A DNA stretch of 64,000 nucleotides from a phage: the sequence record PZ049694.1; one strand, 5' to 3'. The position numbers were made by a program, and so were the translations under genes. Of this stretch, positions 44,071-56,853 are shown piece after piece (the first letter of the stretch is position 1; each line of letters opens with the position of its first letter). Below the pieces are notes generated by a model. It did not search any database, was not told the DNA's origin, and saw nothing but the letters and a program-made list of their open reading frames with translations.

Positions 44071-44647
44071 ACAACCCTGTCAAATCATTCCAATGCTTCC
44101 GGCATAATGACACATATCTATCAGTATCACCAATTTCAATTTGACTGCCATCTGTAATTGGAAGTCCGTCTTCCGTGACTCTAGCTACCATTGTGGCCTT
44201 TTTACCGCAATGACAGACACCTTTAAGTTCAACAAGCTTATCGGCAATAGCCATTAATGCTTGAGAACCTTCAAATAGATTACCTTTAAAATCTGTTCGT
44301 AGTCCATATGCCATTACCGGCACATTGTATACGTCAACAATACGACTAAGTTGATACACCTTTTCAGTAGTTAAGAATTGAGCTTCGTCAACAAATACAC
44401 AATGAATATCCTTTTGTGCTGCAGCCCATTTATAGAATTCAAAGATATCCATGTCTTTTGTAATTATATTGGCGTCCTGACGAATACCAATACGAGAGAC
44501 TATTTCACCTTTTGAATCGCGAGTATCAATAGCCGGTTTAAGAACTAATACACCCATGCCACGTTCTTTATAGTTATGTGCGGCTGTAAGTAATGAAGCA
44601 GACTTACCAGCGTTCATAGCGGCATATGTAAAAATTAAACTAGCCAT
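44066..44647 (-). CDS. tk: thymidine kinase
   Basis: 193 aa; P-loop MNAGKSASLL; C-terminal zinc cysteines CHCGKKA...CRKH. Confidence 0.9.
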   Translation of the reverse strand: MASLIFTYAAMNAGKSASLLTAAHNYKERGMGVLVLKPAIDTRDSKGEIVSRIGIRQDANIITKDMDIFEFYKWAAAQKDIHCVFVDEAQFLTTEKVYQLSRIVDVYNVPVMAYGLRTDFKGNLFEGSQALMAIADKLVELKGVCHCGKKATMVARVTEDGLPITDGSQIEIGDTDRYVSLCRKHWNDLTGLL

Positions 44648-44837
44648 AAGAGTCCTTAGTTAAATTTTCTAAATATGTTTCTAAATCATTTTCGGCTTTA
44701 TCGATAGATTTTACTAATTCGTAGTATGTTTCAGCATCTCCATAATCCGAAGCCAATTCAAAAGATAAATCTCGTTCTAAACTAATAATTTCGCTGATTA
44801 AAAATCGTATTTCATTCTTTTGTTCGCGAGTAATCAT
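44640..44837 (-). CDS. hypothetical protein (65 aa)
   Basis: Minus-strand ORF. Confidence 0.45.
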   Translation of the reverse strand: MITREQKNEIRFLISEIISLERDLSFELASDYGDAETYYELVKSIDKAENDLETYLENLTKDSYG

Positions 44838-51413: not shown

Positions 51414-51654
51414 CTCGGTCCCATGATTTGACCATTAATTCGGACATAAATTCTTCAATGCGCGTTTCTTTAGATGGACTTTCACTATTAGAGACCGCAA
51501 GTTTGTAATCTGCAATAGGACAGAACATATCAAGGTCCATATTAAGGTCGTCTTTGATTTTTTCTTCTGACACATCTTTATCGTATGTATACAGATAACT
51601 ATCACACGATTCTGATTTAATGTAAATTGCTATACTCATCTCAAATTCCTGCAT
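51403..51654 (-). CDS. hypothetical acidic protein (83 aa)
   Basis: Minus-strand ORF. Confidence 0.45.
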   Translation of the reverse strand: MQEFEMSIAIYIKSESCDSYLYTYDKDVSEEKIKDDLNMDLDMFCPIADYKLAVSNSESPSKETRIEEFMSELMVKSWDRDDE

Positions 51655-52127
51655 TCGGTAATAAAACGTTCAACTTCATTATTCTTGGCTTTTATCTTGT
51701 CTTTATGTTCTTGTAAACTACTTTTAATAAGATTAATAATGATGCCTACAGTACCTCCACCAATTATACCGCCAATTATACTTACGATAGTAGATGCTAA
51801 TAAGATAGCGATAATATCTAGTACAGCAAAGGCACTTACTTTAGTACTAAAAAACCATACCGACGGTACAAATATAATCCATCCTGTTATCCATTGGCAC
51901 TTATTGAAAAACTTTTCAAGCTCAGCTTGAGTTGTTCGTATTACTTCATCGATAGGTTGATATCCATTAATGTATCTATTCACGATAATACCTGCTGGCT
52001 GGTCGATTTTAAATTCTTGGCAAATACGTTTCACTAAGTAGGATGGACATCCTGTCCAATCTACTGAATAGTATGAAATACCTTCGTTGCCATCGTCTAT
52101 ATTAGACCAATATGTTTTGTTAATCAT
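51636..52127 (-). CDS. membrane-anchored protein (163 aa)
   Basis: C-terminal hydrophobic helices. Confidence 0.5.
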   Translation of the reverse strand: MINKTYWSNIDDGNEGISYYSVDWTGCPSYLVKRICQEFKIDQPAGIIVNRYINGYQPIDEVIRTTQAELEKFFNKCQWITGWIIFVPSVWFFSTKVSAFAVLDIIAILLASTIVSIIGGIIGGGTVGIIINLIKSSLQEHKDKIKAKNNEVERFITECRNLR

Positions 52128-52814: not shown

Positions 52815-53120
52815 TTATTTTCCTCGACATTCTTTAATGAAATTTTCTAGATTGGTAGATTCAATAGCTTTTTTACGAGCTTCTGCGTGTTCTTCTTCGG
52901 ACAATTTACGTTTATAATTGACCCAGACATTATGGTCGAAACCAGTCGTGGCATATAATAACAATGCTCCAACGAATAGCAAAAACGGCGATAAGAATAC
53001 AAAACCAGGAACACCATCCATATCGTAAGCCTTTTGTAATACTGCAACAGAAAGAGCTACGTAAAAAGGTGATGCAAGTATTGTTAAAAGACCAATTCGG
53101 TTGGTTTCTGTTAATTTCAT
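52815..53120 (-). CDS. membrane protein (101 aa)
   Basis: Two hydrophobic helices. Confidence 0.5.
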   Translation of the reverse strand: MKLTETNRIGLLTILASPFYVALSVAVLQKAYDMDGVPGFVFLSPFLLFVGALLLYATTGFDHNVWVNYKRKLSEEEHAEARKKAIESTNLENFIKECRGK

Positions 53121-53457: not shown

Positions 53458-54414
53458 TTATTTGAAAGGTTTTACCATATGGAAATTTTGTTTGAAACGT
53501 TTTACGTAATCGTCGTGTCCTAAGCTTTGGTACATACTTACTACTTTGCTATAATTTTCCCAAGCGAACTCACGGAACCATCCTGATGTGATTGATGTAC
53601 AGACCTTTTCCAATGCCATCATGAAACTGGCTTCAGGGTTAATTTTAAAGTCATTAGGAATCTGAGAACGTTCTAACGCTAGTACACATGATTCTTCATA
53701 TACACCGGCCAATTTGACAATTTCTGGTAACGATTCGAACTTCTCGCGTGAGGTCATGACTTCAGAACCGTCTTTCATATAAAATGTATAAGCCGGACGG
53801 TCTGTTAGTGCAATGGCTTCATGAATAGTATCATGGTCATACGTATAGATGTCATCTTTAAAGAACGCACTTTTAGAAGTGTCAAGAACTGGGTGAGCAT
53901 AGTTCAAGGTTTCTTTCTGGCGTTTCAGCATAATTTCAGTAAGTTCATCGTTCAGTGTAACACCTTTACCACGAAGATACTGAATATGGTTCATAGTCTT
54001 TAAAAAGAATGGATTATTTTTCTTGAAACGATGAGACATCTTAATTGCAAGACATATCTCAGGAGTTGCCCAGTAAAACCCGTTCAAACGGTCTTTAGTC
54101 AAATTTTTCTTGGCGTATTTTAAAAGGTCATAAGAAGACGTGAAATCTTCAGGAGTGAGTTCACCTACTAATTCACGGACATTAGTGATTGCCGGAACAA
54201 TATATGCTTCAAAATGAGTTTCGCGTCCATTATGGAAGCATTTGAAAACTTGGACATCAGGGTTATCTTGGTGAACATATACACCCATCATTTGATTTTT
54301 GAATGCGTTCCAAGAACCTTGGTCCGCAATAAAGTCCCAATCGCTATTTTTGATAGCGCTAGAATCAATAAGACCGTGATAGTGAAGTGCACGAGAACCA
54401 ATAACTAACATCAT
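53458..54414 (-). CDS. hypothetical protein (318 aa), possibly nucleotidyltransferase-like
   Basis: N-terminal GSRAL...DWDF loosely fits the G[GS]...DxD pattern. Confidence 0.45.
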   Translation of the reverse strand: MMLVIGSRALHYHGLIDSSAIKNSDWDFIADQGSWNAFKNQMMGVYVHQDNPDVQVFKCFHNGRETHFEAYIVPAITNVRELVGELTPEDFTSSYDLLKYAKKNLTKDRLNGFYWATPEICLAIKMSHRFKKNNPFFLKTMNHIQYLRGKGVTLNDELTEIMLKRQKETLNYAHPVLDTSKSAFFKDDIYTYDHDTIHEAIALTDRPAYTFYMKDGSEVMTSREKFESLPEIVKLAGVYEESCVLALERSQIPNDFKINPEASFMMALEKVCTSITSGWFREFAWENYSKVVSMYQSLGHDDYVKRFKQNFHMVKPFK

Positions 54415-54438: not shown

Positions 54439-54690
54439 TTAAATTTCACGACATGCGATATTATATTCATCCCAGAGGTCATCGTGTGAAGCCTCTACCA
54501 ATGGAACGATTGTACCATTTATGTCTTCATTATAAGGGCAAATTGTACAGTGCGCATCTTCGAATCGGATACCTTTGTGTTCAGATTTTTTATAACGCAT
54601 ATCGAATATCTTTGCAAATTTTTCACGAGTAATGGTTTTACCAACCACTTTGGTTCCGATACTTTCGTAATAAATCATTGTGGACTCCAT
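54439..54690 (-). CDS. hypothetical protein (83 aa)
   Basis: Minus-strand ORF. Confidence 0.45.
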   Translation of the reverse strand: MESTMIYYESIGTKVVGKTITREKFAKIFDMRYKKSEHKGIRFEDAHCTICPYNEDINGTIVPLVEASHDDLWDEYNIACREI

Positions 54691-54706
54691 TTAATTTGAT
54701 AGGACT

Positions 54707-54735
54707 ACTATAACATAGCCCTATCTTGTTGTAAA
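54707..54735 (-). promoter_or_regulatory. early-type sigma70 promoter cassette
   Basis: Minus strand -35 TTTACA, 17-bp spacer, -10 TATAGT. Confidence 0.5.
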
Positions 54736-54740
54736 CTGTT

Positions 54741-54938
54741 TTAGCAAGAATAACTAGACGATACCCAGCCTTGAACAGTGATACTATTGTGGGATAATGA
54801 GATCGCGTCCTGGAGATTCAGACCTGCGTTATCTTCAATCCATAACGTAACTTCTTCGCGTTCTTCTGTTGCAATTTGGAACAGGTTTTCCAGAGCAGCT
54901 ACTGCCGTACGTACAGCACAATCTAATTCACGAGACAT
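54741..54938 (-). CDS. small protein (65 aa), GWxSSSxxC family
   Basis: C-terminus QGWVSSSYSC. Confidence 0.45.
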   Translation of the reverse strand: MSRELDCAVRTAVAALENLFQIATEEREEVTLWIEDNAGLNLQDAISLSHNSITVQGWVSSSYSC

Positions 54939-54947
54939 ATGGTTTCC

Positions 54948-55220
54948 TTAGCAAGTGTGAGAAGATGCGATCCAACCACCAGTTTCGAGGCTTAGGTTGT
55001 AGTCGTATTGGTAAACGTCGGCCCATTCAGCATAGCCGTTTTTTGTACAACGTTCAAGGTCGGCTTTAAGCTGTCCGGGTGAATGATATGTTCCACCCAT
55101 ACCATAAGCTGGATACAAGTCGAATGTTGTGTTTTGTTTATCAGCAATTTCTTTGGCAGCCTCAATAGCTGCATAGATTTTTGCTACAGCTTCGGCCAGT
55201 TCGGTTTGTTCTTTAGACAT
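54948..55220 (-). CDS. small protein (90 aa), GWxSSSxxC family
   Basis: C-terminus GGWIASSHTC. Confidence 0.45.
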   Translation of the reverse strand: MSKEQTELAEAVAKIYAAIEAAKEIADKQNTTFDLYPAYGMGGTYHSPGQLKADLERCTKNGYAEWADVYQYDYNLSLETGGWIASSHTC

Positions 55221-55229
55221 AATGATTCC

Positions 55230-55535
55230 TTAGCACATCGCAGAAGACGAAACCCAAGCACCTTCAGTAATAACGTAACCATTACCTTCACGCTTAACAT
55301 CGCCACCATTATTTTCAATTTCATCTTTCATCCACTGGGATACGATTTCACCCTTAGGATAATAAGTACGACCGCTACCATAATCACCTACAGAAAATGA
55401 TACGGCATATTGGTCCGCGATCTTTGTTGCTTCTTCTTCGATACGTTCAGCTTGATTCAGAAGTTTATAAATTGCATCTGAAGCGGATTTGGCATCATTA
55501 AACTCTGGTACTTTAATTTCAATAATCTTACTCAT
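55230..55535 (-). CDS. small protein (101 aa), GWxSSSxxC family
   Basis: C-terminus GAWVSSSAMC; N-terminus MSK... similar to the 54948 copy. Confidence 0.45.
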   Translation of the reverse strand: MSKIIEIKVPEFNDAKSASDAIYKLLNQAERIEEEATKIADQYAVSFSVGDYGSGRTYYPKGEIVSQWMKDEIENNGGDVKREGNGYVITEGAWVSSSAMC

Positions 55536-55891
55536 TTTCTACATTCCTTAATAAAGTTTTCGATTGTTTCATTTTCACGTCTAGCTAGGAGTTCATTATA
55601 ACTAATCATTTGAGAAGCGTAAACCTTTTTATTTTTCTTGTTATGGTTTATAAAATCGTAGTAAAAATAGACTACAGTACAAAATGATGCGATGGATGCA
55701 AAGGCTTGGGTATACCGTAAGTCCCGCCATTGGTCTATGAATCCGCCAGTGTTACCTATAAATCCTAATACAACTCCGTCAATAAGAAATCCAACTAATC
55801 CAAAGGCAAATCCCATGCCAATACTCATAATAAAAATTAGAATGTTCTCACCAAGAGAAGGCCATACGGTTAAGAGTTGAGGCTTTTGCAT
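55532..55891 (-). CDS. membrane protein (119 aa)
   Basis: Multiple hydrophobic helices. Confidence 0.5.
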   Translation of the reverse strand: MQKPQLLTVWPSLGENILIFIMSIGMGFAFGLVGFLIDGVVLGFIGNTGGFIDQWRDLRYTQAFASIASFCTVVYFYYDFINHNKKNKKVYASQMISYNELLARRENETIENFIKECRK

Positions 55892-56295
55892 CTTATTTCC
55901 TTAACGAATTCCATAGCTTCTTCATATTCATACTTTTTAACAGCTTCATCATACTGAGCTTGGGCTTTTGCGCACTGAACTTTCCACTCACGAACTCGGG
56001 CTCTGTGATGACGGCCTTGGTACCAATATCCCACCCAGTTAATAGGCATTAATAAAAATGGTACAATAAACGACCCGGCTATAATAAGTAAAAACACTGC
56101 ATCAGACGATATAACTTTATTGGAATCTAAAATAGCTCCTATAATCATAAAGATTAAAAATGCTAAAGCTAAAATAGGACCAAACAACACTTCATTAGGA
56201 ATTAATTTACGTTTGTATTCGTATGCCCAGGGCTTAATTGGCATGTACAGGGTTGGCTTTGACATATTCTCTACATTCCATAATAAATTGCTCAA
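55870..56295 (-). CDS. membrane protein (141 aa)
   Basis: Hydrophobic helices; start may be internal. Confidence 0.45.
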   Translation of the reverse strand: MSNLLWNVENMSKPTLYMPIKPWAYEYKRKLIPNEVLFGPILALAFLIFMIIGAILDSNKVISSDAVFLLIIAGSFIVPFLLMPINWVGYWYQGRHHRARVREWKVQCAKAQAQYDEAVKKYEYEEAMEFVKEIRCKSLNS

Positions 56296-56830
56296 GGATT
56301 AAATTGTTAGTGAAATTAGGACTAACAACCATGGTTTCATAAAGCGCATCAATAGCACTTAAAGCATCAACTCTCTTAAGCAAAGGCTTGCCTTCATACA
56401 TAGTTTCAGAATCGACGATTAAAGTGAAGTAGTATTTTTTATTATTGACCAGAACTTCTGTATCAATATAAAACATGTTAGACCTTAAAAGCTTGTCTCT
56501 AAAGCCTACGTAATCATCTGAACGTTCACTGATATATTCCCATTCAGTGTTTAAACAACAAACAGACCACGTAGGAGCAACGAAATCAGTGAATCTAATA
56601 TCATGATCTGCAACTAATTTAGCAATAGCTCCGATATCATGAATCATAATACCTGGGGCTAATAAAGATTTTCGGCGATTTGCATATTCAGTTGTCTCAT
56701 AAGAAGCTGACCAGTACCATTTACGTCCAGTTGCAACATATCGTAATGAATCAACTAAAGACGTAGGTGGATTTACCTTATTTCGGAACTCTTCGAACAT
56801 TGAGTCAATATCATTATTTTGGTTTCGCAT
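56234..56830 (-). CDS. hypothetical protein (about 198 aa)
   Basis: Track TTG start trimmed to ATG with AAGGAG SD. Confidence 0.5.
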   Translation of the reverse strand: MRNQNNDIDSMFEEFRNKVNPPTSLVDSLRYVATGRKWYWSASYETTEYANRRKSLLAPGIMIHDIGAIAKLVADHDIRFTDFVAPTWSVCCLNTEWEYISERSDDYVGFRDKLLRSNMFYIDTEVLVNNKKYYFTLIVDSETMYEGKPLLKRVDALSAIDALYETMVVSPNFTNNLILEQFIMECREYVKANPVHAN

Positions 56831-56853
56831 GTTAACTCCTTTATTATCCAAAA

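Follow-up and report, generated by a model that had tools for sequence, protein, structure and literature searches.

Tandem phage genes for small proteins with a common cysteine-terminated tail and their linkage to a gene for a predicted nucleotidyltransferase

Three adjacent small genes at positions 54741 to 55535 of the phage sequence PZ049694.1, of which the entire stretch of 64,000 nt was analyzed (the window), encode acidic proteins of 101, 90, and 65 amino acids (aa) that all end in a tail with a Trp, two adjacent Ser residues, and a terminal Cys. Genes with this tail, in the following referred to as tag, and a downstream gene for an enzyme with nucleotidyltransferase (NTase) fold co-occur almost obligatorily in diverse phages. 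This near-obligate linkage is the most informative feature of the region. It was missed by the initial annotation, which had described the three open reading frames (ORFs) as a tandem-duplicated family with a tail that might serve as a processing, lipidation, or metal site. A direct functional link of some kind between the tagged small proteins and the NTase-fold enzyme is highly probable. The small-protein families phrog_899 and phrog_4882 together with the DUF7277-DUF7275 enzyme are best described as an uncharacterized, widespread phage module composed of an NTase-fold enzyme and Cys-tagged proteins. In full-text literature searches, neither the genes nor the tag or the linkage were found described, and nothing relevant turned up for the RB69 ORF names or for the DUF and PHROG identifiers.

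Linkage of tagged genes and enzyme gene

The linkage was visible from both sides. When loci in IMG/VR were collected with the profile of the small proteins, the enzyme gene was located 0 to 2 kb downstream in 32 of 34 cases, and the remaining two loci were cut by contig ends. When loci were collected with the profile of the enzyme, tagged ORFs were present upstream in 73 of 80, and another three were recognized on inspection by eye. Once duplicates had been removed, 87 of 91 loci contained between one and six tagged ORFs, most often two or three, on the same strand as the enzyme gene. A tagged ORF away from the enzyme gene was not found in any case in which the contig permitted this check.

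This arrangement was not restricted to close relatives. Phages of the Phapecoctavirus group contain enzyme homologues with 37 to 45% identity directly after a tagged ORF, and the same order occurred in distant metagenome contigs, in Pseudomonas Otagovirus, and in Acinetobacter Lazarusvirus. The linkage persisted with otherwise unrelated neighborhoods and with identities of the small proteins down to 30 to 35%. These data have to be compared with the possibility that the small proteins are independent effectors, with a tag that binds a metal or a host factor or gives disulfide-linked oligomers, and that the enzyme is just a neighbor inherited together with them in an accessory cassette. T4-like phages do carry accessory genes that travel in cassettes, a hairpin and a promoter divide the region in the window into two transcription units, and the terminal Cys is the sole Cys in 81 of the 174 proteins that end in Cys, so that a metal or disulfide site could form only between molecules. 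Against this possibility stand the linkage across such unrelated surroundings and at such low identities and the lack of tagged ORFs away from an enzyme gene. Moreover, the short-form enzymes without Cys272, described below, are also without tagged genes. Independent effectors are regarded as rather improbable.

The three genes and their tag

The three ORFs with the tails QGWVSSSYSC, GGWIASSHTC, and GAWVSSSAMC were present exactly as initially annotated (Table 1). In the six frames of the window, W-x-[SAP]-S-S-x-x-C directly before a stop codon was present three times, compared to a chance expectation of 0.003 (mean of 300 shuffles of the window), and in no other ORF of the 64 kb. The ORFs are joined by spacers of 9 nt, and the TAA stop codon overlaps an AAGGA Shine-Dalgarno sequence in each. 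The codons of the tails vary at synonymous sites (GTA/ATC/GTT, TCG/GCA/TCG, and AGT/TCT/TCT), which indicates conservation of the tail at the protein level. In comparison with three Mosigvirus relatives, the changes in the ORFs were mostly synonymous, with a ratio of nonsynonymous to synonymous change (pN/pS) of 0.02 to 0.15 overall and of 0.04 to 0.5 for the 101-aa gene, about 0.1 for the 90-aa gene, and 0.0 to 0.15 for the 65-aa gene. The three ORFs are therefore translated and constrained genes under purifying selection. A conserved RNA element was rejected as explanation because there was no Rfam match and the substitutions were biased toward synonymous ones. Recent DNA duplication or gene conversion as the source of the shared tails was also rejected, since the sole DNA repeat was a 48-nt junction with 73% identity and the proteins share only 24 to 31% identity.

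The assignment of all three genes to one tandem-duplicated family held for two of them only. The 101-aa and 90-aa proteins align throughout and are paralogues. Both matched the hidden Markov model (HMM) of phrog_899 at about profile positions 134 to 221 of 221, with E values of 2e-23 and 1.9e-18, respectively. The 101-aa protein, with orthologues across T4-like genera, has an N-terminal helix and a GDYGSGRTYYP loop (pLDDT confidence of 91 in the AlphaFold2 [AF2] model), and the 90-aa protein contains the loop PAYGMGGTYHSPG. The 65-aa protein, in contrast, belongs to the separate family phrog_4882 (E value of 7.7e-37 over the full length, positions 1 to 65 of 65) and aligns with the other two over the last 14 residues only. 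The hhalign probability between its family and the others was 86% with the tail and dropped to 2.4% after removal of nine residues. The N termini of the three proteins are polar (MSKIIEIKVPEF.., MSKEQTELAE.., and MSRELDCAVR..), and the MSK start shared by two of them, to which attention had been drawn, was without significance. Scans of the three proteins with Pfam, NCBIfam, and PADLOC gave nothing significant, and searches of PDB sequences with both profiles gave no match. Another 65-aa ORF of the window, at 44640 to 44837, matched the small-protein profile weakly (E value of 0.0018; ..SDYGDAETYY..) but lacks a Cys tail, so that the match may be fortuitous or the ORF a degenerate relative.

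An exhaustive profile search of the small-protein family, followed by clustering at 50% identity, resulted in 202 representatives, almost all of them 70 to 120 aa long and with a match that extended to the last residue. Cys was located exactly at the C terminus in 174 of 190 proteins, and one extra residue followed in 7. The residues W(−8), S(−5), and S(−4) were essentially invariant and position −6 was S, A, or P, yielding the family consensus W-x-[S/A/P]-S-S-x-x-C. Thus, the Cys-containing tail proposed from the single sequence is indeed kept in homologues across many phages. All three window proteins and most of their relatives have the S-x-x-C arrangement. Among relatives, SS and Cys are 0 to 2 residues apart (WQSSSC, WDSSTC, and WNSSNC), and the distance may be reduced to 0 or 1 in distant members.

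When the tails were removed from the tagged ORFs of related loci, the bodies fell into 17 clusters at the level of BLAST. Some relatives carry additional internal copies of the tag in acidic linkers (W-D-S-S-G-C and similar): full copies were present in 8 of the 190 proteins, with 0.14 expected, and internal W..SS in 29 of 190, with 1.8 expected. As judged from these sequences, the tail is a portable short motif that is attached to at least two sequence-distinct bodies in the window and not simply the end of one fold.

Two explanations concern the chemistry of the tail itself. As a lipidation or proteolytic-processing signal, as suggested initially, it would have the invariant terminal Cys as sole support. 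There is no N-terminal signal peptide or lipobox in the three proteins, the Cys is at position −1 and not at −4 as in a CaaX box, all three are acidic and, by prediction, soluble and cytosolic, and no gene for lipid transfer or for a protease is linked. The capsid-targeting sequence of the T4 prohead protease, in the consensus form that we assume for it, was not evident at the N termini of the small proteins either. Such a signal, above all for lipidation, is extremely improbable, whereas the tail may be a site of some other processing or modification or a metal site.

Alternatively, the tag may be the cyclization site of a ribosomally synthesized and posttranslationally modified peptide (RiPP), in which a Ser of the S-x-x-C end would be activated and, by elimination, turned into dehydroalanine, to which the terminal Cys would be added, giving a lanthionine- or aminovinylcysteine (AviCys)-type ring. 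A Ser three residues before a C-terminal Cys is the spacing of the AviCys-forming end of epidermin-type peptides. The region resembles RiPP systems also in its tandem, precursor-like small genes with a common conserved element ahead of a single adjoining enzyme, and the invariant His, Cys, and Glu residues of this enzyme could hold a thiol-activating metal. In contrast to RiPP precursors, the small proteins are folded domains of 65 to 170 aa and not leader-core peptides; the distance between Ser and Cys varies, and in some relatives a residue lies beyond Cys. The enzyme has another fold, and no dehydratase, cyclase, or flavoprotein decarboxylase of the LanB, LanM, LanC, or LanD type is encoded in the neighborhood, where the adjacent genes match only DUFs and unknown PHROGs. 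Cyclization, which would be a special case of the substrate model outlined below, is very unlikely.

The enzyme and its possible relation to the tagged proteins

The 318-aa product of the linked gene scored 265 bits with DUF7277 (PF23942) and 97 bits with DUF7275 (PF23940), with gathering cutoffs of 27. It has the NTase fold of the pol-beta superfamily. For this superfamily, the signature was defined as hG[GS]-x(9-20)-Dh[DE]h in combination with a third carboxylate that the family conserves. The residues G6, S7, D25, D27, and E69 were invariant in 40 diverse enzyme sequences and kept in nearly all of about 130 loci, a few of which have D, N, or P at position 69. From sequence and fold, the protein is predicted to be a pol-beta-type nucleotidyltransferase with intact catalytic signature. 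A second invariant set comprises H128, H174, H194-D195, H198, E240-E241, E248-R249, and C272. None of the 40 homologues matched any Pfam NTase family, including DUF1814/AbiEii, at E values up to 1. The labels of enzyme homologues in GenBank vary between "prohead assembly scaffold protein," "baseplate hub subunit," and "putative nucleotidyltransferase," and only the last one agrees with the fold.

The enzyme was present in 734 phage records. A pattern scan of 185,579 species genomes, which finds close relatives only, gave matches on 6 contigs of metagenome-assembled genomes; there was no match in 5,426 complete Escherichia coli genomes, and plasmids gave only three weak partial matches. The module is confined to virulent phages, and the enzyme is essentially absent from cellular genomes and plasmids.

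Short-form homologues of 248 to 270 aa exist in actinophages and in a Vibrio phage (Streptomyces phage Wakanda, L127; Gordonia phage JonJames, L128; Vibrio phage K412, L131; and loci L132 to L144). They are without Cys243 and Cys272, and a tagged ORF was found in none of these 16 loci. Among long-form enzymes, residue 243 was correlated with positions −7 and −6 of the tail, with an odds ratio of about 4. Both this correlation and the joint absence of Cys272 and tag in the short forms are confounded by phylogeny.

Taken together, the preferred reading, which is a tentative one, is that the small proteins may be dedicated clients, whether as substrates or as regulators, of the NTase-fold enzyme. 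Each of them is an acidic, early, and probably cytoplasmic protein with an N-terminal amphipathic helix, a small beta unit, and the C-terminal tag W-x-S-S-S-x-x-Cys-COOH, encoded 0.3 to 1.1 kb upstream of the gene for the enzyme. The enzyme would recognize the tag via the Trp and the acidic context, possibly near the helix with the clade-specific Cys272, and would then act on the invariant nucleophiles of the tag: a nucleotidyl or phosphoryl group would be transferred to Ser-Ser, or the thiol of the terminal Cys would react, or both. A set of small effector proteins that differ from each other would thus be matured or activated by one enzyme, comparable to a lone modifying enzyme for a series of tandem precursors. 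What we infer here is that the proteins interact physically, that the tag is modified, and that there is a downstream role, for instance in host takeover or counter-defense. The substrate model is favored because there are several divergent tagged proteins per enzyme, because the tag sits on unrelated protein bodies and is repeated internally, and because its invariant residues, Ser, Ser, and Cys, are nucleophiles.

There are pol-beta NTases that may serve as models for such a reaction, although for the substrate hypothesis only. MntA-HepT, a type VII toxin-antitoxin system, GlnE, GlnD, and DrrA covalently nucleotidylylate a side chain of a partner, and the NTase-fold enzyme is encoded beside its target protein, as proposed here. 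These enzymes modify Tyr, their partners are HEPN RNases or metabolic and GTPase proteins and not small acidic tagged ones, and the gene order differs.

Several points weigh against the substrate model. To our knowledge, all pol-beta-type protein NMPylators target Tyr and not Ser or Cys. In the AF2 monomer, most of the tag is in a strand and a short helix (pLDDT of about 89), so that the tag may be partly structural instead of a free tail. A tagged ORF was undetectable in four to eight of the enzyme loci, and the evidence from co-variation rests on few independent lineages. In T4-like phages, an unrelated ORF and a hairpin with promoter lie between the tagged genes and the enzyme gene, which means that co-transcription is not required. 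Finally, the orthologue of the 101-aa gene in RB69 is split into RB69ORF139c (71 aa, without the tag) and ORF138c (NC_004928, 69737 to 70040), which suggests a frameshift and, therefore, that at least one client is dispensable in that phage.

In the main rival explanation, the small proteins would resemble antitoxins and inhibit or time the phage NTase stoichiometrically, without covalent modification. They would act in the manner of MenA1, a helical protein of 68 aa that is encoded ahead of menT1 and blocks the active site of MenT1 (PMC10435456). In this case, the long helix and the acidic body may cover the nucleic acid-binding face of the enzyme, and the tag may act as a pseudosubstrate that plugs the active site. 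A 1:1 inhibitor, however, would not be expected to occur as two to six divergent tagged proteins per enzyme or with internally repeated tags, and the tagged genes are not translationally coupled to the enzyme gene in the window. MenAT and AbiE are two-gene modules of chromosomes or plasmids, whereas the module described here occurs only in virulent phages and does not, therefore, behave like an addiction module. MenT1 of Mycobacterium tuberculosis belongs to the DUF1814/AbiEii family and the MenT catalytic motif is S/T-x-D, whereas the window enzyme is by sequence not a member of this family and contains the canonical DxD plus an additional His/Asp-rich helical domain (DUF7275). MenA1 has not been described with a tag such as the invariant W-x-SSS-x-x-Cys that is carried by the one to six partners per enzyme. 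Inhibition is considered somewhat less likely than the substrate model.

Large virulent phages possess many early genes of no known role, and two such gene blocks are now tied into one module with more than 200 clusters of tagged proteins at 50% identity and a sharply defined 8-residue tag of nucleophilic residues. The window proteins are clear members of phrog_899, phrog_4882, DUF7277, and DUF7275; no function is given for these families, and neither the tag nor the linkage was found mentioned in their entries. Should the small proteins act as inhibitors, the module would represent a relative of the tRNA-modifying MenT toxins that is carried by phages and controlled in a new way. Enzymatic modification of the tag, if it takes place, would amount to a new posttranslational chemistry during phage infection, with possible use in protein engineering. 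In its most specific form, the substrate model would be a phage-specific protein-tagging system, in which small effectors carry W-x-S-S-S-x-x-Cys as a portable C-terminal tag for covalent modification by a pol-beta-fold enzyme, through nucleotidylylation or phosphorylation of Ser or conversion to a thioether-capped end, in hundreds of large virulent phages of Gram-negative bacteria; this detailed version is decidedly improbable.

Some observations were made next to the short-form enzyme genes. In the three loci with ORFs read, those of Wakanda, JonJames, and K412, the gene is followed by an ORF of 99 to 127 aa, and in Wakanda a polynucleotide kinase-like gene is located upstream. tRNA genes were at most 4 kb away in 7 of the 16 loci. 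A link of the enzyme to tRNA biology was set aside as a weak lead, since tRNA genes are common only beside the short forms of actinophages and rare beside the tag-associated long form.

Genomic setting and neighboring features

With 96 to 97% identity to the genomes of Escherichia phage JS09 and further Mosigvirus members (RB69 type), the window can be assigned to a T4-like Mosigvirus of the RB69/JS09 type. The three tagged genes are located between homologues of e.2 and e.3, in the stretch between gene e and the tRNA genes, and their counterparts in RB69 are the ORFs numbered 136c to 139c. In T4, e.2 abuts e.3 and the block is absent, which indicates that the whole block is an accessory insertion. 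A "sulfurtransferase" label for the e.3-like gene in phage F31 had no support from Pfam or PHROGs and was not used.

Table 1. Coordinates of the tagged genes, the enzyme gene, and neighboring features in the window
Feature	Position	Strand	Remarks
101-aa acidic protein gene, phrog_899	55230..55535	−	pI 4.6; ending ...TEGAWVSSSAMC; tail GAWVSSSAMC
90-aa acidic protein gene, phrog_899	54948..55220	−	ending ...ETGGWIASSHTC; tail GGWIASSHTC
65-aa acidic protein gene, phrog_4882	54741..54938	−	pI 4.2; ending ...TVQGWVSSSYSC; tail QGWVSSSYSC
Tag codons W94-C101, 101-aa protein	55233..55256	−	
Tag codons W83-C90, 90-aa protein	54951..54974	−	
Tag codons W58-C65, 65-aa protein	54744..54767	−	
318-aa DUF7277+DUF7275 protein gene	53458..54414	−	downstream, same strand; conserved partner of the tagged proteins
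Promoter-like site TTTACG-17-TATAAT	55595..55623	−	consensus scan; within e.3-like gene
Hairpin plus promoter-like element	54698..54735	−	directly after 65-aa ORF; marks downstream boundary of three-gene unit; hairpin at 54698-54725, GTTTACA-17-TATAGT at 54707-54735
83-aa ORF, phrog_3723	54439..54690	−	between tagged genes and enzyme gene in Mosigvirus; without tag
65-aa ORF with weak profile match	44640-44837	−	
Five ORFs with second motif	51636-52127, 52815-53120, 55532-55891, 55870-56295, 56234-56851	−	e.2/e.3/e.4/e.5-like

The three-gene transcript probably starts at the predicted promoter that lies 60 to 90 nt ahead of the 101-aa ORF, as judged from the sequence of this site, and the annotation of phage SA79RD has a middle promoter at the corresponding position. 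At the other end of the unit, a hairpin of 11 bp (ΔG of −16 kcal/mol, z score of −3.9) is overlapped by a sequence similar to T4 early promoters. SA79RD has an annotated terminator at the position equivalent to this element, which we take to resemble the promoter/stem-loop cassette boundaries of T4-type phages.

The 83-aa ORF of phrog_3723 that follows has Cys/His-containing stretches (..DAHCTICPYNED.., ..NIACREI) and is under strong purifying selection (pN/pS of 0 to 0.05). It is missing between partner and enzyme gene in loci L003, L004, L005, and L129 and does not regularly accompany the module in other lineages.

Five minus-strand ORFs that flank the block share a second C-terminal motif, ..(N/R/Q)F(I/V)xE(C/I)R.., with the endings ENFIKECRGK, ENFIKECRK, EFVKEIRCK.., EQFIMECREY.., and ERFITECRNLR. 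Judged by eye, several of these ORFs apparently contain hydrophobic segments. The second motif is also present in tandem ORFs of Enterobacter phage CC31 (L062).
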